Shown: positions 41,356 to 63,170 of the stretch, piece after piece | How the letters are laid out: every line of letters starts with the position of its first letter | Numbering within the stretch: position 1 is the first letter of the stretch | Source: Scyliorhinus canicula | Lineage: Eukaryota | NCBI RefSeq assembly: GCF_902713615.1 | Contig: NC_052158.1 | Coordinates: 2,418,001 to 2,482,000, forward strand | DNA: 64,000 nt | Direction: 5' to 3' | The notes under the pieces: model-generated | What the model saw: only the letters and a program-made list of their open reading frames with translations | Told to the model about the DNA's origin: nothing | Databases searched by the model: none | Position numbers and translations under genes: made by a program

Positions 41356-42504
41356 CAAAAATGTGGAGGACTGTTCCTCGCAAGAAGGAAGGAAGGAACT
41401 GAAACAGTAGCGGGGAGATTAGCAGCACAGTGGTCAGCACTGCTTCCTCACAGTGTCAGAGACCCGGGTTCAATCCGGCCTCGGGTGACTGTTTCTGTGG
41501 AGTTTGCACTTTCTCCCCGGGTCTGCGTGGGTTTCTCCGGGTGCTCCGGTTTCCTCCCACAGTCCAAAGATGTGTAGGTTAGGTGGATTGGCCATGCTAC
41601 AAAATTGCCCCCGTGTTCAAAAGATGTACAGATTAGGTGGGATTAAAGGGATAGGGCAGACGAGTGGGCCTAGATGAGGTGCTATTTCAGTGGGTCGATG
41701 CGGACTCGATGGGCCGAATAGCCTCCTTCCGCACTGTAGGGATTCTGGGATTCTCTGATGGGGTTTGAAGCACAGCTCAATCCCATCGCATAGCACGTGA
41801 CATAAGTTTTAGGGCTAACAAACCCAGGCTAGAGTAGGATGAGGGGGGGGGGGGGGGCGGTGAAGCAAATGTGCGATTTGTACCCAGAGCTAAACTGAGC
41901 AGGCTATGATGCAAAAGGGTGTTGAAAGGTTCCAGTTCAGCTTGGCGTCACCAGCACACACAGAGACGTTGGCAGACACGTCGCGGGGTGATTGATGCCA
42001 ATGCCGAAAACAACAGGTGGACAGGTAACTTGAGTTAGCCACACCTAGTTGGAGATATGAGTCCGTTTTTGTCGCGTTGGGGTAGATCAAATTAAAGGGA
42101 GGGCAGCCCAGCATGGAAGATGACAGAGAAGGATGGAGAAAATAATCTTGGGGGGCCCCCAAAAGGTGTCAAGGAGAGTGAGCCACAATTAAATGGTTCA
42201 TAAGAATATCATGGGTAACCTTGCCCAGAACACACCCAATGCTATGGGGAGGGTTGAATACTTTTAAATCAGAAATAGCTCTGGTGACATGTGGAAAAAA
42301 CGAAGTAGGTGAGGTGTGATTCGCCTGTCCAAAGTGTGAATGGCGTCAGATCACCTCAGGGCATTGGCCAAAGGGCTAAAACTAAATAGAGTTCAGAGGG
42401 GAGCCGAACATCCCTCCTAAAGTCTCACAATATAAAAGGTGGCAAATATTCCCTCAGATGTTGTCAGTGGTTAACAGGTTTGAGTGAATATTTTGAGCCC
42501 AGTG

Positions 42505-45305: not shown

Positions 45306-45935
45306 GGGCAGCACGGTGGCACAGTGGTTAGCACTGCTGCCTCACGGCGCCGAGGACCCGGGTTCGAATCCCGACCCTGGGTCACTGTCCGTGTGGCGTT
45401 TGCACATTCTCCCCGTGTCTGTGTGGGTTTCACCCCCACAACCCAAAGATGTGCAGGGTAGGTGGATTGGCCACGCTAAATTGCCCCTTCATTGGAAAAA
45501 ATAATTGGGTACTCTAAAAAAAATTTTTTTTTAAATAACTGAACTGGAAAAGATGGGCCCAGATAGGTGAGGCACAAGTCCGGGACATGGAGGAGAGGGT
45601 GACTAAGTGGTAGCACAGTGGTTCGCACTGTTGCTTCACAGCGCCAGGGTCCCAGGTTCGATTCCCAGCTTGGGTCACTGTCAGTGCGGAGTCTGCACGT
45701 TCTCCCCGTGTCTGCGTGGGTTTCCTCCGGGTGCTCCGGTTTCCTCCCACAAGTCCCGAAAGACGTGCTGTTAGGTAAATTGGACATTCTGAATTCTCCC
45801 TCTGGATGCAACCCGTACCAGCCTCCCCGAACAGGCGCCGGAATGTGGCGACTAGGGGCTTTTCACAGTAACTTCACTGCAGTGTAAATGTAAGCCTGCT
45901 TGTGACAATAATAAAGATTATTATAAATATTATTA
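45306..45935 (+). mobile_element. Two HE1-type SINEs: poly(A)-type (45306-45535) and Rex-tail chimera (about 45605-45935)
   Basis: Same heads, different tails. Confidence 0.85.
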
Positions 45936-46285
45936 TTTACTAACTTTCTGAAAGAGGCGTCTTAACTCGCAAGTAATCGGTTAAAGTGAAAACAATTGGG
46001 CAATTTGATTACTTTCAGAGTATGTGTTCTATAATTTATATGGAATCATATGAATCATTTATTAAAACAGTTTTCATGTCTTATTGTACAGCTCTTCAAA
46101 ACCCTCACAAGTAGATACATCATAGGTAACAGTCCGAACACAGTATGGCAAAATACCCTCGCTTCAGTTCCTAATCTTAACTAACAGCCATCCCAAACAT
46201 TACCGTCATTCCTTAATTACAGGTGTCAACAAGGCAGTGGTAGCATTTTCTGCTTTAATGTTTTGTCTCACAGTGACGTACGTGT

Positions 46286-47249
46286 TGTAGCCACTGTAGC
46301 CACCTAAAATGGACACTGAACTAAACAAAATGGAGAATCGCTAAGACTGCAGGGAAAAACAGTTTAGCCAAGGCAAGCAGCCTGCAAACACTCATTAGCA
46401 TTTTGCAAGCAGCAAAACTAGTTTCTGGCCAGGTGGAAGATCTCAAACCAAAGGTGATAATGGCAGAACGTTTTACATACTAATGAGGCAGTCCAGATCT
46501 AGGGACACACAATGGCAACATTTGGGTTTGAATAAGATACTTGAGTGGATGTCCAGACAGAGCGGCACCAGAAGTATCCACTATAGAAACCGCCCCCACC
46601 ATCAAGAGAGACCCTCACATTGGAGGAATTCAAAAGATATCGATTGGAAGCGATCCAATCGATACCTGAAGGTAAAGCCCGCCCAGGAAAAGGCAAGGAC
46701 ATTGGGGACCCCTATAAAAGTAGACCCCCACACATGGTCCTGTCTGTTGTTTCGTGCTCCGGCTTTGACCAAGACCTTGAACGTGTATCCTGACTCCAGC
46801 CGTTGAGCACCAGCCGCCGAACCGTAAGTGCCAATACGACGCTCGCTACGCGAACCAAGCCCGCTAGACCCCCAGTGACCAGCACGCTTTCTGAAGGTTG
46901 CAGACCAAGACCGGGACGAAGGCCTCGCTCCCTGACCTTGCCTGTTCCTGTGTAGTTAAGTATTCTGATTGCTTAGTTTAGTCATAGCTTAGTCCCTTAG
47001 TGTGTGCATGCGTATTTATTATAATTGTATAATAAATATTGATCGTTTGGAACTTACTAATCGGTGTATCGTTTTATTACTTTGAACCTGACCTTGGAAT
47101 ATTTGTGAGGTGTCTATACGGCATCTGGCGACTCCTGAGCTGAAAAATACATATACAGAGCCTAGTAGTGTTAAGCACACGGCCTTTAACGGAGGCAAGT
47201 TAATACACTCCAATAAACGCGTTTTACACCCATAGCAAAACGTGCAACA
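46286..47249 (+). repeat. 5' LTR (964 bp): TATAAAA 46713, splice-donor-like CC|GTAAGT 46824, AATAAA 47031 and 47212
   Basis: Direct repeat of 55109-56072 at offset 8823; three substitutions seen by eye. Confidence 0.96.
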
Positions 47250-47254
47250 TTTAG

Positions 47255-47272
47255 TGGCGACATCCTGACGGG
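47255..47272 (+). other. Putative primer-binding site TGGCGACATCCTGACGGG
   Basis: Starts with TGG, 5 nt after the LTR end; cognate tRNA not identified. Confidence 0.6.
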
Positions 47273-47565
47273 ACACGGTTATAAGTGGTACCCCCACTCC
47301 GTCGAGGACCCTGAAATTTGAATTAGAAATCTGGTAAAGAAAAAGGAAAGAAATCACAAATATTCAAGGTGTTCAAAGGAATAAACGTAATTTGGAAGTG
47401 TGTTTAGTGCATGCGTACTAACAGGGTTGTAAGGAAAACCTGAAAGCATTTTTGTTGCGACAAACTTTCGGTAGTTTTGTGAACGGAACATAGCGTAAGC
47501 CTTACCCGTTTCGTGAGACATAACCTCAACACCCCCTGTTCTAAATTTAAAGTGAGTCAGAGAAA

Positions 47566-49277
47566 ATGGCCATGCAGGCAATGGAACGCCTCATGAACCC
47601 AGAACGGTTTGTGGTCGCAGCGACCAGCAGTAGCCGAGTAGGTCAGTGTCCCATGTGGGAGCTGGAACTCCGCAAGTATCTGCAAGGAAAGGGATGGCCC
47701 CTTTGGAAAGAGTTTTGTTTGAATGAGGAGACAGGTCCCGGAAGTATAGGACATACTTGGTGGGAGAACCTCTCTCAAATTCACAAGAAAAACATGAGTA
47801 AAGCACGTAAGCCGATGTCCTGTTTGGCACAATTGCGAGGCACAGAGGAGGTCGTTCAGACGCTCCGGGCAGAATTAGAAGAAAGAGATAGAATGAGTAA
47901 AGTGGATGTCAGGGACATCGAAAAGGAAAATATGGATCTAAGAGGGAAGTTGGCAGAGAAAGGTAGAGAGGTGGATGATGCCAAGAGGGCACATCAGTCT
48001 TGTCTAGCCCATCTCAGCAGTTCCCAGACCCAGTACGAAAAGGCCTATCAGGACGTGCAACGTGCCGTCCTGATAAGAGAAGAATCAGAGAAGCAGGTAG
48101 AGGCTTTGCAGAGGCAATGCTCTGACCTTAAAGCAGCTTTGAGAGCACTCCATGCTGCCACCACAGAACAAAGGCAAAGTACAGTAGATCACGCAAAATG
48201 CAGGAAGCAGATTGCAGAGCTGCAATCGCTGCTTTCGGTGCAAAATGGGTTTCAAAGCACCTTTGGAACGCAGTTAGATGAGGAGAATGCCCCAGACTGG
48301 AAAGAGTTAAGTGAGACAGCGCAGCGTTATGTTCAGGGAACATGTGCGCCAGCAGCGCAGCAGAAAAGGCAAGCACCCCAACCCCCCACAGTTACCATTC
48401 CAATGAATCCAGTCACCACCCAGAGAAAAGCGACCATAGAAGGCGCACCCGATATAACTTACACCACCCCCTTAACTGTAACCCAACTCAGGGACGCGTG
48501 TGAGAAGATCACTCCGTTTCTCCCCACCGCAGACCCCCACCAGTTTTTCGCAAAGGTAAAGCAACAGGCTACGAGAGAGAGCAGGTTAAACTCACAGTTC
48601 TGAGTTTAGACCCATCGGTTGTAGCAGCCCTCCCCGACCCACAGAACGTTGGCGGAGGCACCCTAGAGGAAATGCACACCTCCATTTTAGACGCCATAGG
48701 GTATAATCGAGGTGACCCCGTAGAAGGACTTAATAAGTGCCGGCAGAAGAAATCCGAGCACCCCACAGCATTCGGCGGAAGGCTGTGGATCCATTTTAAC
48801 GCAGTATTTGGCGATTTAAATAGAGCCCATTTGAACCGTGAAAATATGGTTAAATGGACGCGCACCATAATTTCTCATGCAACAGAAGCAGGACAGAGCG
48901 CTTGCAACAGCTATGACCCCTCAGAGGAGGCCCATAATGAGAAGTGGGTCCTGAAAAGATTGTCCCGCGCTTGGGAGCAATCAGTTCAGGGCAGAGGTAA
49001 AGTGAAATCCCCAGAAGAAGCTCAGGCTGCAGCAGACATACAGGCAGTGAGAGAGCACCAAAAACCCGCGTGGGTGAATGAAGGAAAGAGCAGCCCTCCA
49101 CAGAAGTCGCAGGAATGCTACAACTGTGGCCAGTTAGGACATTGGGCTAAGGAATGTAATGGACCCCAGAGATCACAGAGAGGCCAGCAGACAGGCACTC
49201 TGAACCGGAATAAAACAAAACCGATCCATAGTATAGGGATCCAGTCAGGACAGACCAATGTGGACGGAACGGACTGA
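47566..49277 (+). pseudogene. gag: gag, with a frameshift near 48573: coiled-coil N-half, capsid-like region, CCHC zinc knuckle
   Basis: ORFs 47566-48603 and 48672-49277 join across a frameshift (...QQAT / EREQVKLTVLSLDP...); CYNCGQLGHWAKEC at 49116-49157. Confidence 0.85.
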
Positions 49278-52200
49278 CGGTGTTCGGGCTCCCCCACTTG
49301 GGTCTGTGACACACTATGGGATCCGTCAGGAAGACCGGTAGTCACGGCAAAGTTAAGAGGGAAGCCCATAGAGTTACTTTGGGACACAGGAGGCTCCCGC
49401 ACCACAATTAACTCCACCACCACGGCACAAGCAGACACGTGGCCGACCACCTCCACCATCACACTTAGCGGGTTCACAGGACACTCGCAGCAGGGACATA
49501 TCACAGCACCCGTAGCAATCCAGCTAGGGAACATTTCCACCAAACACCCAGTAGTTTTAGTAAATCTTCCCCGGACAGCAGAACACATCCTAGGGATAGA
49601 TTTTATGAATGCACATAGCCTGTCGTTCGACCCAGTGAACCAGTGTGTCTGGCGAATGGCAAGATCGGACAGAGCACCCGCTACTCTCACAGTAGGAGAC
49701 TACGCTAATCGGATTAGCGCAGTAGGAGAATACTCATTTGACTTGACTACACTAAACACGGACAGACAAGTTAAGGCAGTATTAAATAAACACAGGACAG
49801 CATTTGCCAGTCACCGGCATGACTGCGGCAGAATGGCTGGACAAATTCACGTTACCGGACCTGACCCCAGACCACAAAAACAATATAGATTTCCCCTAGA
49901 AGCAGAGGGAGAAATAGAGAAAGTGATAGGTAGCTTATTGGAGCAAGGTGTGCTTAGAACAGTAGCCTCGACCAATAATGCCCCTATTTGGCCAGTGAGA
50001 AAGCCCGACGGATCATGGCGTCTGACCATTGATTATCGGGAACTCAATAAAGTAACCCCAGCAGTAGCCCCCACGGTAGCAACAAGTCCCGAGACCATGC
50101 TCAAGCAGGGACTCAACTCCAAATATTTCACGGTATTGGACATTAGCAATGGCTTCTGGTCAATCCCATTGGCAAAGGCGTGCCAGTACAAATTTGCCTT
50201 CACTTTTAAAACACAACAGTATACGTGGACATGCCTTCCACAAGGATTCCACAATTCCCCCTCCATTTTCCATCGACAGCTGGCGAATGGTTTAGAGAAA
50301 TTTTCCCGCCCCGAATGTCTGGTACAGTATGTGGACGACCTACTACTGCAGACAGACACAAAGGCAGAGCACATTACGCTTCTGGCCGAACTCCTGGAAC
50401 TTTTAACCAAGATTGGATGTAAAGTTAACCCAAGAAAGGCCCAGATTTTGGAAAATAAAGTGATGTATTTGGGAACAGTCATCACACACGGCAAACGCGA
50501 GATCGAATTCAAAAGAATTGATTCGATTGTCAAATTGCCCCTTCCCCAGAATGTTTCAGCCCTCCGGTCGTTTTTAGGACTGGTTGGTTATTGTCGGAAC
50601 CACATCGACGGATTCGCGACAAAAGCCGCCCCACTCTCAGACCTCCTTAAGAAAGGAGCCCCCTGGGAATGGCTTCCGCAGCATACAGAGGCTGTGGAAG
50701 AGTTAAAGAAAGCCCTTAGCGCAGCACCCGCGCTACAAGTCCCAGACCAACTTTCCCCCTATGCAATAGAGGTAGCGAGCACAGATCTGACCCTCTCGGC
50801 CGTGTTACTTCAGGAACGGCACGAGCAGCTAAGACCAGTGGCTTATGCCTCCCGACTGTTAGACCCAGTTGAACAAGGATTTTCAGCCTGCGAGAGGCAC
50901 CTCCTTGCAGTCTTCTGGGCAGTGCAATATTTTTCTTACATTACCGGACTCAACCCCACCACCATTTTGACCGAGCACACCCCCACACAGTTACTCCTAG
51001 ACGGTCGACTGAAGGACGGTTCAGTTAGCCAGATTAGGGCAGCTAGGTGGACACTACTTTTACAAGGACGGGACATTACAGTTAAACGGACCCACACACA
51101 CACATTTTTAGCCGACAACCTCCAATACCCAGGACAGCCCCATGAATGTGAAATTGTAGCCCCCTTACATAACACAGGACCCTTTATAGCGAAGACACCC
51201 CCCAGGAAGATAGGGAACCCAAAACAAAGCCCCCAACACACAGACACGTGTGGACCACTGAGGATTTACGTAGACGGTTCATCCACAGTTTTAGAAGGTG
51301 AGCGTATCACAGGATGCGGCATCTATGTCGAGGACGCGCAGGGGCGCGCTCTCGAAGAGATAGCTTTAAAATTACCGGGCCACTTAGGCGCGCAGGCAGC
51401 AGAGCTCGCGGCCATAGCTTATATAGTGGACCACCCCGATTCTTTCCCCAGCCCAGCGGACATATATTCGGACAGTCTATATGTCTGCAATAGTTTAACA
51501 GATTTTCTGCCCCTGTGGAGGACACGAGGTTTTGTCTCCGCAGACGGGAAACCCCTTCCATCAGCCCCTTTACTCCAACACATTTTAGAGAAAGCGAAGG
51601 ACAGGACCTTCGGCATTATCAAAGTAAGAAGCCACCATAGGTCATCCCCCCCTGGGAATGTAAAAGCCGACGCACTGGCTAAGGCAGGTTCCAGGCGAGG
51701 ACACTTGTGGACACCCCCAGCTAGCGCACCAGCTAGCGCCCCTGTGAGCGCAGTCCAAGTCTCACAGACCGATATTAAAGATTTAGTAGAGGCACAAAAG
51801 CAGGATGAGGATCTCAGGGAGAATTTCAAAGGCAACTTTGTGCCACAGTATGACAAATTCAGACACGCACTGACCACACATGAGGGTGTGATCATAAAGG
51901 ATCAGCTTTATGTGGTCCCGCAGCAGGACAGGAATGAAATGATTGCTTTGTTCCATGATGGACACGGGCATCAAGGGATCGACGCAACCACGAGGCACCT
52001 CAGGCAACTCTGTTGGTGGCCTAACCTAAGGACAGATGTAAGTCACTACATCGAGAATTGCCTTATTTGCGCCCAGAATAACCCGGAGAGGTATTCTAAA
52101 AAGGCACAACTTCGGCATACTCGACCAGTTAATGGCCCCTGGACAAACCTCCAGATCGACTTTATAGGACCATTGCCCCCTTGTAGGAATGGCTATAAAT

Positions 52201-53506
52201 ACGTTCTGGTGGTCATCTTTACCAAATGGGTAGAGGCATTCCCCTCTAGAACGAATACAGCTAAGACAGCTGCAAAGATCCTGACCCACCACATCTTCAC
52301 GAGATGGGGTTTACCCCGTAGCATTGATTCGGACCAGGGATCTCACTTCACAGGACGGGTCATGAAGAACGTCCTGACAATATTTGGCATAAAACAAAAT
52401 TTTCATATTGCGTATCACCCACAGTCCAGCGGGATTGTAGAGCGCATGAATCGGACCCTAAAATCCACACTTCGCAAAATGGTTCAAGAGAACAACTCCA
52501 CATGGGATTCAGTGCTCCCATTTGCATTAATGTTCATCAGAAATACAGTTTCAACTTCCACAGGATACACACCACACACACTCATGACCGGACGCCCTAT
52601 GAAAGGTACAGAATTCCTTTTAGGACTGGACATGACTAGCCCCGAAGTGACGGCCCTCACACACGAAAAGACGGTTAAAGACCTGGTTGAGACTGTGAGG
52701 TCTGCACAGATTGCAGCCGCAGTTCAGCTAGGGAAACGCCGTAAACAACGCACAGCTTGTTTTAACAAGACCGTACACCCCACAGAATTCCAGGTTGGGC
52801 AACAGTAATGTTATCTGTTTACAACCCCAACAGTTTTTTGGCACCAAAATATTCCGGCCCATACTCAATGTCGGATAAAATTAGCCCCTCAGTTTATAGG
52901 ATAAAATATCCTAATGGTAAGACCGCGTGGTTCCATATCAACCAGTTAAAGGCATATGGAACACAGGCCAACCATGCACACCATGTCCTGCTAGACGCAG
53001 CAGAACACCTCACCCCACCCACTAGAGACACGTTTCCACCATCCCCCTCACAGACCAGTTCTTCATCGGACTCGCCCACGACTCCGCCCACAGACCACGA
53101 CAGACCACGCCCCGAAATGCCCACAAGCTGCCGCGGCAGAGACAGCGATACAGACACTGACTCTGAGGACAGCCACAGCACACCACACTACAGCCCACAT
53201 AGCAGCGACTATGACCCCGACTACAGTGACCCCATGGAAGTCACTTACATTAAAAACCCAGACCCACCACCCGACCCCGACTACCCCGACAATACCCATT
53301 CACTTTTGGACCCAACACTCTGGCACAGGGACAATTCGTACCGACTTGTCCGCAACGATGAAAGTGACCCCCGGTCACACAATTCAAAGATATCATGCCT
53401 GATCCACACAAGGGTGTGGGATCCGGGAGAGCAGGACGACACGGTGTCTGAATCCCGATACGGCAACCCCTTTGTGACCCTGTTCACAGAGACAGAGGAA
53501 AAGTGA
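49278..53506 (+). pseudogene. pol: pro-pol: protease, RT, tether RH, RNase H, integrase; 1-nt frameshift at about 52806
   Basis: LLWDTGGS (49383), ILGIDF, LPQG, YVDD (50328), IYVDGSS...AELAAI...YSDS...NVKADALA, HHCC, DFIGP/SDQGSHF/VERMN; KYSGPY continues in the next frame. Confidence 0.92.
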
Positions 53507-54386
53507 GGTGTCCAGATGATGTAAAATAGGAACCGCTTGAGGGAAGCGATGTCCTTTCTGATGGAACCTGCACGTATGTTTTTGTTTGTCAGTTTATGTT
53601 TTGTTTGTTAATATGTTAAGGGTTTGATTGCAGATCTTTTCAGCTGAAAAGATTGTGACCACCTCGCACGCACGTTAGTTTGTCTGCAGATACCTCTGAG
53701 AACTTCAGGTGTATCCTCTGGTGAACCGACACGGTTCACGACTTGTTCCCTGTTTTCAGATGAGGGAGCATCTTGGCTCCTCCATTGTTTTTAGGTGCCC
53801 CTCTATTCGGTGAATAGAGGCTGCAAATCCATGATAAACACATTCTTGCCCGTTTAATCCAGGTTACTCAGGCAGTGGACAAACGGCACTGAGGACCCGC
53901 CCTGTCTGAGAACCCACTTTGGTCAGCCAAGCTCGGGTATGGCACAGCACGCCCTACCCGGGGATCCCATTCAAATCGTACCCGTAGCGGCCCATACGCA
54001 ACCCATTCGACCTTTCATTTCCAATTTGTTTTCATTTTTCGTTAGGCAGCCCTTAGGCCGCCATCCCACATGCTATTTACATCCAGGAACATTCGGATGG
54101 TAAATGAGCAAAGCCTGCGAGACGGCTCGCAGGAGGAACGTTGTTAGGTGTATTGTGTTCATTAAATTCGCTTTTGAAAAAAAAAATGAGGGGAGTCACA
54201 GGGTGTGACTTGGCCAGTCATTGTAATGGGTCAATTGGAATTGAAAGACAGATACACTAACAAGTACGGATATTAAGCTGTATTGACAGATACTGTGCTT
54301 GATCCCATAGCTTTCGAAGGACGAAACAGAGATCACAGCAAGGATCGGCCATACAGGAGGAACAAAAGAAGGAGAACGAAGAGAAG

Positions 54387-54731
54387 ATGATGGAAGCCCA
54401 CTTATTGCTTTTAAATGTTATATTTGTTTGTGTGGGAGCAAGACACGTTTCCCCCACAACCCCCACCGTAAATGTTTCACTTACAGCAACTCCCCCGTGC
54501 TCAGCTCTGATCAGTGAGGTTCAGACCTGGTGCACAAAATTTATGACATGGTACTCCATGTCATACGTGATTGAATCACTGCTAGTGATTGCGATCCTCG
54601 CCATACTCGTACAGACCCTCAGGTTGAGGAAGTGGAAGAGGAGAGCCTCCCGTTCCTGCCCCTCAACCGTCTATGGAGTTCAATCTCCTATCTTCGGTTT
54701 CCACCAATCCCCCCAGCCCCTCAATGAATAA
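54387..54731 (+). CDS. Accessory ORF of the retroelement: 114-aa small type-I membrane protein
   Basis: Hydrophobic N-terminus ending VGA|R, NVS sequon, C38/C49, TM YVIESLLVIAILAILVQTL, polybasic RLRKWKRRASR; sits in the env position. Confidence 0.7.
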   Translation: MMEAHLLLLNVIFVCVGARHVSPTTPTVNVSLTATPPCSALISEVQTWCTKFMTWYSMSYVIESLLVIAILAILVQTLRLRKWKRRASRSCPSTVYGVQSPIFGFHQSPQPLNE

Positions 54732-55108
54732 TAAAGCACTGTGTGAATAAAATAAAATATATACCCATGTATTATATTGTCCTGAACTCGACTACCGAGT
54801 CAGGAAATGTTATGTGATGTGGTATGAATGGATGAGGTTTAGTCTGTAATGAAATGTTTAAGTTAAGATAAGGATAATTGTGATAGGTAGAGGTTCCCAG
54901 TTTGTGGTAATGCATGTCCCCTTTGACATAGCGCCAAGTAGAGATGTCAGTTAAAAAAAAATTTTCTTCCCATAGTTTAAGGACAGAGTAGACGCTCAGG
55001 AGCTTGCCGAGGTCAGGGAACACAAAGAAGGCAACCCAGATGCACTCAAGGCAACGTACATAGGTGATCCTTCACAATATTTTGATTGTGAGGATCACAA
55101 GGAGGGAA

Positions 55109-56072
55109 TGTAGCCACTGTAGCCACCTAAAATGGACACTGAACTAAACAAAATGGAGAATTGCTAAGACTGCAGGGAAAAACAGTTTAGCCAAGGCAAG
55201 CAGCCTGCAAACACTCATTAGCATTTTGCAAGCAGCAAAACTAGTTTCTGGCCAGGTGGAAGATCTCAAACCAAAGGTGATAATGGCAGAACGTTTTACA
55301 TACTAATGAGGCAGTCCAGATCTAGGGACACACAATGGCAACATTTGGGTTTGAATAAGATACTTGAGTGGATGTCCAGACAGAGCGGCACCAGAAGTAT
55401 CCACTATAGAAACCGCCCCCACCATCAAGAGAGACCCTCACATTGGAGGAATTCAAAAGATATCGATTGGAAGCGATCCAATCGATACCTGAAGGTAAAG
55501 CCCGCCCAGGAAAAGGCAAGGACATTGGGGACCCCTATAAAAGTAGACCCCCACACATGGTCCTGTCTGTTGTTTCGTGCTCCGGCTTTGACCAAGACCT
55601 TGAACGTGTATCCTGACTCCAGCCGTTGAGCACCAGCCGCCGAACCGTAAGTGCCAATACGACGCTCGCTGCGCGAACCAAGCCCGCTAGACCCCCAGTG
55701 ACCAGCACGCTTTCTGAAGGTTGCAGACCAAGACCGGGACGAAGGCCTCGCTCCCTGACCTTGCCTGTTCCTGTGTAGTTAAGTATTCTGATTGCTTAGT
55801 TTAGTCATAGCTTAGTCCCTTAGTGTGTGCATGCGTATTTATTATAATTGTATAATAAATATTGATCGTTTGGAACTTACTAATCGATGTATCGTTTTAT
55901 TACTTTGAACCTGACCTTGGAATATTTGTGAGGTGTCTATACGGCATCTGGCGACTCCTGAGCTGAAAAATACATATACAGAGCCTAGTAGTGTTAAGCA
56001 CACGGCCTTTAACGGAGGCAAGTTAATACACTCCAATAAACGCGTTTTACACCCATAGCAAAACGTGCAACA
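55109..56072 (+). repeat. 3' LTR (964 bp), preceded by PPT AAGGAGGGAA (55099-55108)
   Basis: Near-identical to the 5' LTR. Confidence 0.96.
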
Positions 56073-56137
56073 GTGTCAAATCCAGCATTTTCACCTATGC
56101 AAAGCATAAGATTGCACACATTTAAAACTATTATTGA

Positions 56138-59100
56138 CAATGGGGGGAGCAACGCAGCTAGGGGGAGATCTAGCTAGGGGGGGGAGTGGGGGGGGGTACC
56201 GGGTTGCTGCTGGAAGGGCCAAAGGGGAACTGAGGATGTTAAAAGGGGTCGGGACGAGGATTTGCCACTGTGGGGAACGGGACGTGCGGGGACCGTGGGC
56301 ACGTGGCTGGCCTAGGAGGCCTATTGCTGATCGGCGGGGGGGGGGGGGGGGGGGGGGCAATAGCCCCCCGATTCGGCTGGTCATCCGGAATGTAAGGGGA
56401 CTGAATGGACCGGTCAAGCGGGCCCGGGTAGTCGCGCATTTGAAGGGGCTGAGGGCGGATGTGGCCATGCTCCAGGAGACGCACCTTAGGGTGGTAGATC
56501 AGGTAAGGTTGAGAAAGGGGTGGGCTGGACAAGTGTTCCAATCGGGTATAACTGCGAATAACCGGGGGGGTGGCGATTTTGGTGTGGAAGAGAATACCGT
56601 TTGTGGCATCGAGTGCGGTGGCGGATAGGTGTGGCAGATATGTGATGGTAAGCGGTAAGCGGTAAGCTCCAGGGGGACCGGGAGTTGCTGGTTAATGTGT
56701 ACGCCCCGAACTGGGACGATGCGGGCTTCATGCAGCGCATGTTGGGCCGGATTCCTGACCCTGAGACAGGGGGCTTAATAATGGGAGGGGATTTTAACAC
56801 AGTGCTGGACCCAGCACTCGACCGCTCTAGGTCCAGGACGGGTAGGAGGCCGGCGGCGGCCAAAGTGCTGAGGGGGTTCATGGACCAGATGGGAGGGGTG
56901 GATCCTTGGAGATTTATGAGGCAGGGGGTTAGGGAATTCTCGTTCTTCTCCCATGTCCACAGGCTTACTCCCGGATTGACTTTTTTGTTTTGAGCAGGGC
57001 GTTGATTCCGAGGGTGGAAGGTGCGGAATACTCGGCGATAGCCATTTCAGACCACGCTCCGCATTGGGTAGACCTTGGGCTGGGGGAGGGGACGGACCAA
57101 CGGCCGATGTGGCGGTTAGAGGTGGGCTGTTGGCGGACGGGGAGGCGTCCGGGCGGGTCCGGAGGTGTATAGAGGGGTACTTAGAAAATAACGATAATGG
57201 GGAGGTGCAGGTGGGGGTGGTCTGGGAGACGCTGAAGGCGGTGGTTAGGGGGAAGCTGAACTCCATCAGGGCACATAGTGAGAGGGGGGAGAGGAGAGAG
57301 AGGGAGTGGCTGGTGGAAGAGATGGTGAGAGTAGACAGGAGGTCCCGGAGGTAGGGCTGTTGAGGAAGCGACGTAGCCTCCAAGCGGAGTTTGCTCTATT
57401 GACCACGAGGAAGGTGGAGGCGCAGTGGAGGAGGGCGCAGGGGGCAGTATACGAATACGGGGAAAAGGCGAGTCGGATGCTGGCGCACCAGCTCCGGAAG
57501 CAGGAGGCAGTTAGGGAGATACGGGGAGTTAGGGATGGAAGAGGGAGTCTGGTACGAAGTGCGAGGGGCATCAACGGGGTGTTCATGACCTTTTATGAGG
57601 AACTATACCGGTCAGTGCCCCCAGTGGAGGAGGGAGGGATGGGTCGCTTTCTGGGCAAGCTAAGGTTTCCGAGAGTGGAGGAGGAGCAGGTGGGGGGGTG
57701 TTGGGGGCACCAGTTTGGCTGGAAGAGCTGGTTAATGCGATGGGGAGCATGCAGACAGGGAAGGCACCGGGGCTCGATGGGTTCCCAGTTGAATTCTATA
57801 AGAAGTTTTCAGACCTGCTGGGCTCACTGCTAGTGAGGATCTTTAATGAGGCAAGGGAGGGGGGGGCTTTGCCCCCGACAATGTCTAGGGCGCTGATCTC
57901 ACTGATCCTGAAGCTGGATAAGGATCCCCTTCAGTGCGGGTCATATAGACCGATTTTGCTCCTGAATGTTGGCGCGAAGCTGCTCGCAAAGATATTGGCC
58001 AGAAGGGTGGCGGACGTCGTGCCGCAGGTCATACACGAGGATCAGACGGGTTTTGTGAAGGGCAGGCAGTTGAATGTTAATGTACGGAGGCTTCTGAATG
58101 CCATAATGATGCCGGCAGTGGAGGGGGAGGCGGAGATAGTGGTGGCGATGGACGCGGAGAAGGCCTTTGATAGGGTGGAGTGGGGATATCTTTGGGAGGT
58201 TTCGAAAAGTTTCGGGTTTGGAGAGGGATTTGTTAGGTGGGTGAGGCTGCTGTATGATGCCCCGGTGGCGAGTGTGGTGACGAATGGGAGAAGGTCGGAG
58301 AGTTTTCAACTGTACCGGGGGACGAGGCAGGGGTGCCCCCTGTCTCCCCTGCTGTTTGCGCTGGCGATCGAACCCCTGGCCATGGCGTTGAGGGAGTCGA
58401 GGACCTGGAGGGGGATAGTGCAGGGTGGGGAAGGAGCATCGGCTGTCGTTATATGCGGATGACCTACTGTTGTACATGGCGGACCCGGTGGGGGGGATGC
58501 CGGAGGTGATGAGGATTCTTAGGGAGTTCGGGGACTTCTACGGGTATAAGCTCAACGTGGGGAAGAGTGAGCTGTTCGTAGTACATCCGGGGGACCAGGA
58601 GAGAGGGATTGGGGAGCTCCGGCTGAAAAGGGCGGAGCGGAGTTTCAGGTACCTGGGGGTCCAGATAGCCAGAAGCTGGGGGGCCCTACACAGGCTCAAC
58701 TTCACGAAGCTGGTGGAGCAGATCGAGGAGGAGTTTAGGGGGCAGGGTCCAGTCTGTCAAAATGATGGTGCTCCCGAGGTTTTTGTTCCTCTTCCAGTGC
58801 CTCCCTATCATGATCCCGAAGGCTTTCTTCAGGCGGGTCAACAGGAGCATTATAGGGTTTGTGTGGACGCAGAAGACCCCAAGGGTGAGGAGGGTGTTCC
58901 TGGAGCAGGGTAGGGATGTCGGGGGGTTGGCGTTGCCCAACCTAGGTGGGTACTACTGGGCAGCCAATGTGGCGATGATACGTAGGTGGGTGATGGAGGG
59001 GAAGGGGGCTGCATGGAAGAGGCTGGAGGCGGCATCCTGTGTGGGCACAAGCCTGGAGGTGCTGGTGACGGCGCCGTTGCCGCTCCCCCCAACAAGATAT

Positions 59101-60265
59101 ACTACGAGTCCGGTGGTAGCGGCTACCCTCAAAACATGGGGGCAGTGGAGGCGGCATAGGGGGGGAGGTGAAGGCTTCAGTCTCGTCCCCGATACGGGGG
59201 AACCACCGGTTTGTACCAGGGAGGATGGACGGAGAGTTTCTGAGCTGGCACACGGCAGGTATCAGGTGGATGGGGGACCTTTTCCCGATGGGAAGTTTGC
59301 GACCCTAGAGGAGTTGGAGGGAAGGTTGGGCCTTCCCCCAGGGAACACCTTCAGATACATGCAAGTAGGGGCGTTTGTTAGACGGCAGGTGGCGGAGTTT
59401 CCACTGTTGCCGTCAAGGGGGGTTCAGGACAGGGTGCTCTCGGGGACGTGGGTTGGTGAGTGGAGAATCTCAGCAATCTACCAAGTGATGCAAGAGGGGG
59501 AGGAGGCCTCGGTGGAGGAGCTGAAAGATAAGTGGGAGGAGGAGCTGGGAGAGGAGATTGACGAGGGGACGTGGGCGGATGCCCTGGGGAGAGTGAATTC
59601 CTCCTCCTCCTGCGCGAGGCTCAGTTTAATTCAATTTAAGATGCTGCATAGGGCGCACATGACTGGGGCCAGGCTGAGCCGGTTCTTTGGGAGAGAGGAC
59701 AGGTGTGGCAGGTGTTCAGGGAGCCTAGCAAACCACACCCACATGTTTTGGGCGTGCCCTGCGCTGGAGGGCTTTTGGAGGGGCGTCCAGGGTTGAGCCG
59801 GGCTGGGGGCTCGCAATTTTTGGGGTGGCAGCGGAGCCGGGCGTGCAGGAGGCGAAAGAGGCCGGTATTCTGGCCTTTGCGTCCCTGGTAGCCCGGCGCA
59901 GGATTCTTCTGCAGTGGAAGGATGTGAGGCCCCCGGGCGTTGAATCCTGGATCAACGATATGGCTGGGTTCATTAAGGTGGAGAGGGTCAAGTTTGCCCG
60001 AAGGGGGTCGGTGCAAGGGTTCTTCCGGCGGTGGCAACCGTTTCTAGACTTTGTGGCGGAGTGTTAGAGGGCGGTCAACTTCAGCAGCAACCGGGGGGGG
60101 GGGGGGGGTTGTTTTTTCCTTTATTGGGTATGTGTATCTGTTCTCATGTTAATTATTTTTGTTAATTTATTATTTCTGTATTGGTGGGGCTACTGTTATT
60201 TTTATTTTTATTCTGCTTTTGTTGGTTAAAACTTGTTGAAAATTTGAATAAAAATTATTTTTTTA
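56138..60265 (+). mobile_element. 5'-truncated L1-clade LINE, ORF2 with several frameshifts
   Basis: NVRGLN, QETHL, GGDFN, RQGCPLSP, YADDLL, CxxC...HMFWAC; 14-bp TSD AAAACTATTATTGA at a TT/AAAA target. Confidence 0.92.
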
Positions 60266-60319: not shown

Positions 60320-63170
60320 GTGGGGAGAGGGGCAGTTAAGGGTCAACTGTTGTGGGTCTGGAGTCACATGTAGGCCAGACCAGGTAAGGACGGCAGATTT
60401 CCTTCCCTTGAAGGACATTAGCGAACCAGTTTTTACAACAAACGACAATGGTTTCATGCTCATCATTAAACTCTTAATTCCAGATTTCTGTTGAATTCAA
60501 ATTTCACCATCTGCCCTGGTGAGGTTCAAACCCTGGCCCCCAGAGCTCCTGGATTACCAATCCAGTGACAAACCCACTAGGCCACTGCCTTCCATGTAGA
60601 GTAGTGGTAAACATGCCAAGGTGGTGAATGACTTGGATGGAACCTCCAGGTGGCAGTATTCGCACCTATCTGCTGCTCTTGTCCTTCAAGGTGGTGGTGG
60701 CCGTGGGTTTGGAAGGTGCTGCCTGAGGAACCTCGGTCAGTTCCTGCAGTGAATCTTGTCGATGGTGCACATGGCTGTTAATGTGTCAGTGGTGGAGGGA
60801 GTGAATGTTTATGGAAGGGTACATGTAGTTACATAGAAGATAGGAGCAGGAGGGAGACCTTTTGGCCCTTCGAGCCTGCTCCGCAATTCATCACCATCAT
60901 GGCTGATCATCCAACTCAATAGCCTAATCCTGCTTTCTCCCCATGTCCTTTGATCCCATTCTCCACAAGTGTTAAATCTAGCCGCTCCTTGAATATATTC
61001 AATGTTTTAGCATCAACTACTTCCTGTGGTAATGAATTCCACAGGCTCACCACTCTTTGGGTGAAGAAATGTCTCCTTATCTCTGTCCGAAATGGTTTAC
61101 CTTGAATCCTCAGGCTGTGACCCCTGGTTCCTGACACACCCATCATTGGTAACATCTTCCCTGCATCTATCCTGTCTAGTCCTGTTTTAATTTTATAAGT
61201 TTCTATGAGATCCACCCTCATTCCTCTGAATTCCAGCGAGAACAATACTAACCTAGTCAATCTCTCCTCATATGACAGTCCCACCATCCCTGGAATCAGG
61301 GGCTGCTTTGTCCTGGATGGTGTGGAGCTTCTTGAGTGTTGGAGCTGAGCTCACCCAGGCAAGTGGAGAGTTTACCATCACACTCCTGACTGTGCCTTGT
61401 AGATGGTGGACAGACTTTGGGGAGTCAGGAGGTGATTTACTAGCCACAGGATTCCTCGCCTCTGACCTGCTCTTGTAGCCACAGTATTCATAAGGCTAGG
61501 CCTCTGGCCAATTGCAACCCACAAGATGTTGATTCAGCGATGGCAATGCCATTGAATGTCAAGGGGCGATGGTTAGATTCACTTTTGTTGGAGATGGTCA
61601 TTGCCTGGCACTTGTGTAAATATTACTTATCACTTGTGACTTGTCGGTGCATGAGGAGGCCATTTGGCCTATTGACTCTGCACCGACCCTCTGAAAGAGC
61701 ACCCAATCCAATGCAGACATGGGGAGAACATGCAAACCCCACACAGACAGTCACGCAAGGTGGGAATTGAACCCGAGTCCCTGAGGCTGTGAAGCAGCAG
61801 TGCTGACCACTGTGCTGCAGGGTATGGTATGTATATATATATGTACAAATGTACATACAAGCCGAGATCCCTGAAAGAAGATTGCCATTTTTGGAAAGAA
61901 CATGAGGAACAGGAAAGATAATTTGTCAGATGAACACATAACTCAGGGTTTAAAAAATCAGAACCACATTTTTTTGACGTTCCATCTCTAATATTTACAT
62001 TTGAGCTGTATATGTTCCAGTACGATTCCAGTTCACATGCGGTTAGTACCACAACAAACAGAGGGGTCTTGGTGTATATGTACACAGGTCAGCGAAGATG
62101 GCAGGGCATGTCAGGAGAGCTATTAATAAAGCTTGTGGTATCTTAGCTTTATTGAAAGAAACATTGAGCACAAGAGCAAGGAGGTCATCTTCAATTTACA
62201 TTCAACATTCAACATACAGGGCACCACGGTAGCATGGTGGTTAGCATCAATGCTTCACAGCTCCAGGGTCCCAGGTTCGATTCCCGGCTGGGTCACTGTC
62301 TGTGCGGAGTCTGCACGTCCTCCCCGTGTGTGCGTGGGTTTCCTCCGGGTGCTCCGGTTTCCTCCCACAGTCCAAAGATGTGCGGGTTAGGTGGATTAGC
62401 CAGGCTAAATTGCCCTTAGTGTCCTAAAAAATAATGTTAATGGGGGTTGTTGGGTTACTGGTATAGGGTGGATACGTGGGCTTGAGTAGGGTGATCATTG
62501 CTCCGCACAACATTGAGGGCCGAAGGGCCTGTTCTGTGCTGTACTGTTCTAATTCTAATTCTAACATTAGCTGGGGGGTCATCTGGAGAACTACATTGAT
62601 TTCTGGATGCTGTACTTGGGGAGGGGCGTGAAGACATTTCTAGAGAGTAGAGGGAAAATTCACAAGAATGATTCCAGGGTTAAAGAACTGTAGCAAAAAG
62701 GAGTTTAGAGGTTGGGACTTGGAGGAAAGGCTGATAGGAGACTTGATAGAACTATTCAAGATGCTGAGGCGTGTGGGCAGGGGAAATAGTGACAAACTGT
62801 TCCCACTCAAGATGGCATCAAGAACTGTTGGACACAGAGTCAAATTAATTGGCCGAAGGAGTAGAAGTGATGTGACGGGGGAGAAAAAGGGGGGATTGGA
62901 ATCTGGAACTAAGATCCTGAAAGTGTGGTGGAGGCAAGTCCGCTCGAGGTATTCAAAGGGGATTTAAAAAAAAGATATTCTTTATTGTCACATGTAGGCT
63001 TACATTGCAATGAAGTTACTGTGAAAATCTCCTCATCGCCACATTGGATTGCCATCTGGGAGAGAGAGAATGTGCAAGGTTATGGAGTGGGAGTGGGTGG
63101 AATTCTCTTTCGGAGAGCCGGCGCACACCCGATGGGCTGAATGACCTCCTTCTGCACTGGTAAAAGATTC
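60320..63170. mobile_element. Old SINE/LINE debris: tRNA-SINE (-, 60320-60595), CR1 (-, 60830-61300), HE1-type SINEs (61650-61815 -, 62218-62565 +), CR1 (+, 62590-62970)
   Basis: Same motifs as the other copies. Confidence 0.7.

Follow-up and report, generated by a model that had tools for sequence, protein, structure and literature searches.

The FAST proteins of reoviruses, cell-cell fusogens of about 80-200 aa, are described as inserting through a reverse signal anchor, with neither a signal peptide nor glycosylation (PMC3952855), and in the account given for p10 an N-terminal cystine loop is required and the membrane-proximal region (MPER) is polar and poor in aromatic residues (PMC3961370). 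A second group of small single-pass proteins, termed sORF2, has been reported from insect elements of the MDG1 group; these are Metaviridae genes of an origin given as unknown, and their products are mostly myristoylated, with an ectodomain of about 30 aa (PMC11952523, Voichek et al. 2025). The screen reported there covered arthropod elements, some lepidopteran elements carry sORF2 3′ of pol, and insect LTR elements are described as passing from follicle cells to the oocyte via sORF2 (PMC11952523). As these sources present them, FAST and sORF2 proteins work through an aromatic or amphipathic segment, a transmembrane (TM) helix and a basic cluster (PMC11952523, PMC3961370, PMC3952855). Among retroviruses, snakehead retrovirus (SnRV) is described with a full Env bearing a 136-residue tail, four accessory ORFs, and a 3′ ORF region acting largely in cis (PMC12193657), and its Gag is presumed to be unmyristoylated (PMC2717909). 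Superspreader ERVs are described as having a deleted or decaying env, and for ERVs that move only inside a cell constraint on env is expected to be lost (PMC4643047).

We analysed a stretch of 64,000 nt from the catshark Scyliorhinus canicula (GCF_902713615.1, contig NC_052158.1, positions 2,418,001 to 2,482,000), termed the window, and give all features in its coordinates on the + strand. An endogenous retrovirus spans 46286-56072, its LTR pair being 99.7% alike, between a 4-bp target-site duplication at 46282-46285 and its repeat at 56073-56076. The 5′ LTR (46286-47249, 964 bp, TG...CA) holds a TATA-like box at 46713, a splice-donor-like CC/GTAAGT at 46822-46829 and AATAAA at 47031, and the 3′ LTR (55109-56072) has 3 mismatches against it. 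A primer-binding-site-like stretch, recognised by its position and TGG start, lies at 47255-47272 and presumably resembles the 3′ end of tRNA-Arg. The gag gene (47566-49277) is in two frames in the window copy, with a coiled-coil N-terminal half, one CCHC knuckle and no Gly2 for myristoylation; in unbroken copies it is open over 582 aa. It ends in a TGA in frame with pol and followed by CGG (49275-49280), a read-through-like arrangement. Also in two frames in this copy, with a break near 52805, pol (49278-53506) encodes RT, a tether RNase H, a second RNase H, integrase, an SH3-like domain and a long low-complexity tail, and a pol of 1408 aa together with an open gag was found in 5 of 17 long copies. 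The integrase tail (52990-53506) is rich in Pro, Ser, Thr and Asp, and its conserved terminal motif, W-x-P-G-E...N-P-F-x-x-L-F, is common to several families. Downstream of pol lies a non-coding spacer of 880 nt (53507-54386) with 15 ATGs, the last at 54226, then acceptor-like sites ending at 54289 and 54310 and a purine-rich leader free of ATGs. There follows an ORF of 114 aa (54387-54731), hereafter mini-Env, 880 nt 3′ of the integrase stop and 377 nt 5′ of the 3′ LTR. A stem-loop at 55064-55098 (z -3.6, 1 of 200 shuffles being as stable) stands just 5′ of the polypurine tract (PPT, 55099-55108). Outside the element, the remains of a LINE, with frames resembling endonuclease and RT, occupy 56140-59800, 3′ of the LTR, and tRNA-like SINE repeats are found at 41421-41599, 45315-45751 and 62228-62407.

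The element is likely to be an SnRV-clade retrovirus, since its RT motifs, compared by eye with the supplement of PMC7947760, match the SnRV row of that material and not the lokiretrovirus rows. Its best solved pol relatives are the enzymes of foamy and murine leukaemia viruses, the nearest database pols are frog and coelacanth “NYNRIN-like” proteins (44-50%), and in an RT tree, built like our other trees without SnRV itself, the window element falls among these frog and coelacanth pols and apart from class I and gypsy-type rows. It shares with SnRV the order gag-stop-pol in one frame, a dual RNase H and, going by the description in PMC2717909, a coiled-coil, unmyristoylated Gag with one zinc knuckle; unlike SnRV, the window family has a single ORF of 114 aa in place of the full Env and four accessory ORFs. 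A lokiretrovirus identity, first taken from the dual RNase H that lokiretroviruses also have, was rejected, as the RT reads LPQG where lokiretroviruses read xPFG. With env-less superspreaders (IAP, FcERV-gamma6, MLERV1_3) the family has in common the loss of most of env and a high copy number, and it differs from them in that the env remnant is under stronger constraint than pol.

On sequence features mini-Env is predicted to be a single-pass surface glycoprotein. Its hydropathy peaks at aa 5-15 and aa 61-76, and the first belongs to a predicted signal peptide (aa 1-18, 54387-54440), called on hydropathy and the -3/-1 pattern. A Thr/Pro-rich stalk (aa 19-46, 54441-54524) that is variable between families carries the sequon NVS at position 29, and leads to a Trp-rich membrane-proximal segment (aa 47-58, 54525-54560) with W48 and W55. 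Next come a predicted TM helix (aa 59-78, 54561-54620), the polybasic cluster RLRKWKRRASR (aa 79-89), which includes the third tryptophan, W83, and a short tail (cluster and tail 54621-54728) with a conserved Y96 and a terminal P-x-F-G motif. Six residues do not vary across 16 reduced forms (W55, S59, Y60, E63, L66 and K82), and four more (W48, A69, T77 and Y96) are nearly invariant. Cysteines stand at 15, 38, 49 and 91. The preliminary description had reported this ORF with its cysteines, sequon and basic cluster, and each lies where it was placed; the three residues given weight there, the Cys38-Cys49 pair and the tail Cys, are not conserved. Cys38 is confined to subfamilies A and B (defined below), both loop cysteines are missing from family C, families C, D and E have no Cys pair and Cys91 is missing from subfamily B, so that a Cys38-Cys49 disulfide loop is not a trait of the family. 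A Pfam search of mini-Env gave only TMEM156 at E 0.025, far below the cut-off, a word-indexed protein search gave no homologue, and Atlas searches returned weak generic matches or none; among 1.84 billion proteins searched, its named homologues were solely gene models of two catsharks. No description of this protein was found in the literature searched, a scope outside which most subscription journals lie.

The layout invites comparison with three kinds of membrane protein. Like FAST proteins, mini-Env is small, with one TM after the signal, an ectodomain of about 40 aa and a juxtamembrane polybasic cluster; unlike them, it keeps the hydrophobic aa 5-15 and the sequon N29 in both A and B, with cleavage predicted, and has neither Gly2 for myristoylation nor a conserved cystine loop. 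Its membrane-proximal segment, in contrast to that of p10, is rich in Trp. No FAST protein matched it among the 1.84 billion proteins. The FAST identity suggested in the preliminary description does not hold: the loop cysteines vary, a signal peptide and sequon are predicted, and membership of the FAST family was rejected after neither signal- and glycan-free insertion nor the myristoyl or cystine-loop motif was found. Mini-Env may still work like a FAST protein. With insect sORF2, as PMC11952523 describes it, it shares the small single-pass form, an amphipathic ectodomain segment, a basic patch and the absence of a full env, and it departs from sORF2 in its vertebrate retroviral host element, its predicted signal peptide and sequon, and an ancestry traced to env; the window element, with its retroviral dual-RNase H pol, is not one of the Metaviridae, and the MGxxxS/T motif is missing. 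Like a complete retroviral Env, mini-Env has a predicted signal peptide, a TM anchor and a tail, and is encoded between pol and the 3′ LTR, as the preliminary description had recognised in placing it where env would stand. Unlike a complete Env, it lacks the furin site, fusion peptide and two heptad regions that an older family (below) has. None of these was found in the 114-aa or in a longer, 219-aa form, and without a fusion peptide or heptad pair mini-Env cannot drive classical virus-cell entry.

The family that bears mini-Env is large and young. Genome-wide there are 1,840 exact junctions of PPT and 3′ LTR, and an RT pattern, which picks up other families as well, gave 3,346 matches; LTR pairs were 98-100% alike in 15 of 15 A and B copies. 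Two subfamilies can be distinguished among the copies, A, which is window-like, and B; they are about 81% alike in the ORF region. An ~85-bp tandem duplication at 53622-53706 occurs in many A copies and is missing from the window copy. Picked by their junctions (the first 30 on one contig), 26 of 30 copies had an intact ORF of 113-118 aa and the remaining 4 were deleted or truncated at the ORF; it was intact likewise in 26 of 30 loci picked on 3′ non-coding DNA. A score-ranked search gave 150 of 150 matches free of stops, which we left out of the evidence because selection on score biases them. None of the 17 long copies (20 fetched, less L100, L105 and L110, which lay on the wrong side of the anchor) has a long env. 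Three young, internally deleted copies (L094, L102 and L070) have lost pol and keep part of gag and an intact ORF.

Between A and B, by simple Nei-Gojobori counts of one A copy against three B copies that are not mutually independent, dN/dS was 0.19-0.21 over the whole ORF (Fisher p 4e-9 to 3e-8) and 0.03 over a core of aa 38-90 (dS 0.5-0.6, dN 0.017), compared with 0.09 for gag and 0.07-0.09 for pol. By segment it was 0.30 in the signal, 0.57 in the stalk (aa 19-37), 0.003 in aa 38-58, 0.11 in the TM and 0.007 in the basic cluster (aa 79-90), and the two shifted frames gave no signal of purifying selection. Judged by these substitutions, mini-Env is under strong purifying selection between subfamilies, its membrane core is held more tightly than pol, and selection acts on the protein, between replicating lineages of the element. 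The conserved ORF length and the dN/dS below 1 that the preliminary description proposed to look for were thus both found when this check was run.

The history of the ORF can be read from older families at the same locus. Fifteen of 20 loci with a divergent RT fall in the same clade, 12 of them with a homologous small ORF in place, and the protein motif is kept among families whose pols share 55-85% identity, as well as in two named catsharks. Family C has natural open ORFs of 219 and 225 aa at this locus; here a signal, a Cys-containing head of about 110 aa and a Thr/Pro stalk precede the shared Trp-rich segment, TM, basic cluster and tail. A relative of this head, used as the query, brought up the older family F (638 first-look candidates for the full-env family), in which a decayed env of about 630-650 codons consists of the head, a furin-type site, a Gly/Ala-rich fusion-peptide-like stretch, a heptad region, a Cys-rich middle, a second heptad region, a Trp-Trp segment, a TM and a basic tail. 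These parts occur in this order at 11 or more distinct places and span some 1.9 kb where nothing interrupts them. In 11 of the 18 old copies checked, a furin-type site with the Gly/Ala-rich stretch after it can still be made out; none of the family F copies read is intact, the longest open frame being 335 aa. At other loci the head is joined to the TM with a varying middle lost (L206, L193, L191, L205, L207 and L204). Window-like gag or pol lies upstream in 7 of 11 family F env loci fetched, the family F pols and the window pol belong to one clade, and the gene starts 0.9-1.1 kb 3′ of the integrase tail in family F, family C and the window alike. In one place (L239:1-9976) a young window-family copy is apparently inserted within an old full-env copy.

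We call the old long gene an Env from its anatomy and position. Its signal, fusion peptide, coiled coil and TM correspond to those given, with an RxKR site, for the lokiretrovirus Env in PMC7947760, from which it differs in that the old env pieces have no PF00523 match. Its class found no match in Pfam, PDB or fold searches, and neither an Ig-like head nor a paramyxovirus-F-like class, which are not thereby excluded, gained support from Pfam or PDB profiles. AlphaFold models were poor (pLDDT 45 for the 219-aa form and 42 for a 292-aa old-env piece), and fold searches against viral models gave nothing at E 0.001. The head (L169:1684-2031 on the - strand, L206:1534-1908 on the + strand) had no match in Pfam, PDB or Atlas and matched just 5 proteins among 1.84 billion; it is likely to be a receptor-binding domain. 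Elsewhere in the genome, two class I elements (L141 and L142) have an env with a classical immunosuppressive domain and another ERV family (L144) has a different env-like gene, all three unrelated to the small ORF by tblastn.

That mini-Env derives from the Env of about 630-650 codons by stepwise loss we regard as highly probable. A profile comparison links the short forms to the 219-aa form (E 7e-19), and the latter matches the old Env pairwise both over its first 137 aa, against the Env N-terminus (46%, E 6e-43), and in the TM (E 4e-6), while the family C stalk matches the end of the second heptad region weakly (E 7e-4). Short forms and full Env compared directly gave 10 and 4 bits, with reversed controls of up to 2, and an HHalign probability of 67%; this direct match is weak, and the homology of the short form to Env runs via the 219-aa form. 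When non-coding DNA of the window was compared, 2 of 3 family C loci matched and 0 of 10 full-env loci did. The direction from long to short follows from Env being ancestral in retroviruses and from copy ages, the median identity among copies being 78% for the full env (F), 90.5% for the 219-aa form (C) and 98% for the short form of B. The pol trees, which do not fix the order of events, place family F among C and E, and the short-form family E groups with C and F and not with A, B and D; given this placement of E, the head was perhaps lost twice or the gene swapped by recombination. Reduced forms have about 10 residues fewer before the TM than two aligned F ends, and E63 is missing from the aligned full-Env TMs and present in the early reduced copies L204 and L207. 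With residues lost before the TM and a TM glutamate gained, the remnant did not simply decay: it was retained and reshaped. An internally deleted env had been offered as the alternative in the preliminary description; it is borne out as to origin by the longer forms and the full env at the locus, and, worded as a deletion remnant, leaves out that the remnant is selected more tightly than pol. Of the two observations named there as counting against a special protein, a full-length env was found, in older families, and loss of the ORF across copies was not.

Expression of mini-Env would need splicing because of the 15 ATGs between pol and the ORF. The donor-like motif is present in 22 of 30 3′ LTR copies, the acceptor-like site at 54289 in 25 of 26 copies, and that at 54310 was picked out by visual inspection in families A, B, C, E and F. 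In two stranded runs the ORF is covered by poly(A) reads from the sense strand, at depths of 13-15 and 26, most of pol having depths of 2-8 and 10-27; these reads stem from many copies and are not assignable to a single one. Among the splice joints listed for these two runs none leads into the ORF; loose read ends at 53635 and 55049, considered as joints, were rejected since by eye they match natural subfamily-B DNA. The deepest read coverage of the element in three RNA runs lies over the spacer at 53661-54250. Three S. torazame gene models splice host exons just 5′ of the ORF start, which speaks indirectly for splicing, and four models of that species (P0065, P0071, P0072 and P0073) are predicted isoforms of host genes (HEPACAM2-like, galectin-domain, SUGCT and CFAP36) that end in mini-Env sequence; such isoforms could possibly gain a membrane anchor, or else be annotation artefacts.

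As to function, the account that we prefer, tentatively and at a little short of an even chance, is that mini-Env is a miniaturised Env that likely helps capsids into a touching cell, for example a germ cell. Env would first have lost the furin site, fusion peptide, first heptad and Cys-rich middle, giving the 219-aa form, and then the head domain, giving forms of 100-130 aa; meanwhile the membrane-proximal segment would have been shortened and the TM would have gained a Ser-Tyr-x-x-Glu face. Made from spliced RNA, mini-Env would reach the surface by means of its signal peptide and basic cluster and would cluster via the polar TM face, while the Trp-rich segment and basic tail might bend or bridge membranes at cell contacts, as in insect sORF2. 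That mini-Env aids cell-to-cell passage is plausible to nearly the same degree; we favour such a role because selection is tightest on the parts that FAST and sORF2 proteins use, because an ERV confined to one cell would be expected to lose constraint on env (PMC4643047) and because the ORF is covered by sense poly(A) reads, although the glycosylated Thr/Pro stalk and the lost myristoyl or cystine-loop motif fit FAST action poorly. The stronger version, in which nothing but the membrane-proximal helix, anchor and basic tail of a class I fusogen was left, and these came to act as a FAST-like cell-cell fusogen carrying the element from soma to germ line, we consider unlikely.

Somewhat unlikely too, if quite conceivable, is that a protein of the same origin took on an accessory role, using the TM glutamate to bind a host membrane protein and the Tyr motif to re-route it, with Vpu-like counter-defence, receptor blocking or a small channel as variants. 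The invariant S59, Y60, E63 and L66 and nearly invariant A69 and Y96 in the 16 reduced forms would suit this, as would the appearance of E63 together with reduction, and a search by features returned only small single-pass proteins (flu M2, DAP10 and TMIE), all below 0.9 and taken as leads. However, action on the membrane explains the conserved Trp-rich segment and basic cluster at least equally well, and a counter-defence gene might evolve fast, yet the core dN/dS is 0.03.

In foamy viruses, Gag depends on the anchor and tail of Env to reach the membrane or to mature. By analogy mini-Env, again of the same origin, might be an assembly adaptor for an unmyristoylated Gag in an element that moves within one cell, which we think improbable. 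The Gag here lacks Gly2, as the SnRV Gag is presumed to be unmyristoylated (PMC2717909), the signal, TM and tail are the parts retained, and the pol-less copies L094 and L102 retain part of gag along with the ORF; but an adaptor leaves the near-zero change in the luminal Trp-rich segment unexplained, and budding at a membrane with no route of entry would, we infer, be a dead end.

Replacement of env by an independently captured gene, of FAST type or cellular, is very doubtful. The FAST- and sORF2-like layout (small ectodomain, TM, basic patch), the sORF2 genes reported after pol in lepidopteran elements (PMC11952523) and the weak direct similarity of short forms to full Env could be read in its favour, and against it stand stepwise intermediates at the same locus, of which the 219-aa bridge largely refutes it, the lack of a donor among the 1.84 billion proteins and the absence of FAST hallmarks. 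Scarcely credible is a functionless env remnant held open by the youth of the copies or by an overlapping RNA element, for although the copies are very young and the SnRV 3′ ORF region is described as largely cis-acting (PMC12193657), it is refuted by a core dS far above dN, the opposite of RNA constraint, and by a protein motif kept across families and in two catshark species.

In the standard view ERVs are found in two states, either with env kept and selected for reinfection or with env lost and movement intracellular. The catshark family presents a third state, in which nearly all of Env is gone and a 53-residue membrane core was held more tightly than pol during amplification. The life cycle of the element still needs a membrane protein. 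With full, half and minimal forms preserved as fossils at one locus, it can be asked which function of Env outlives the fusion machinery. Should mini-Env act in cell-cell fusion, vertebrates would have their own equivalent of insect sORF2, and one route by which small fusogens originate would be in view; and should the protein prove a FAST-like fusogen, the preserved intermediates would give a small fusogen a traceable origin.
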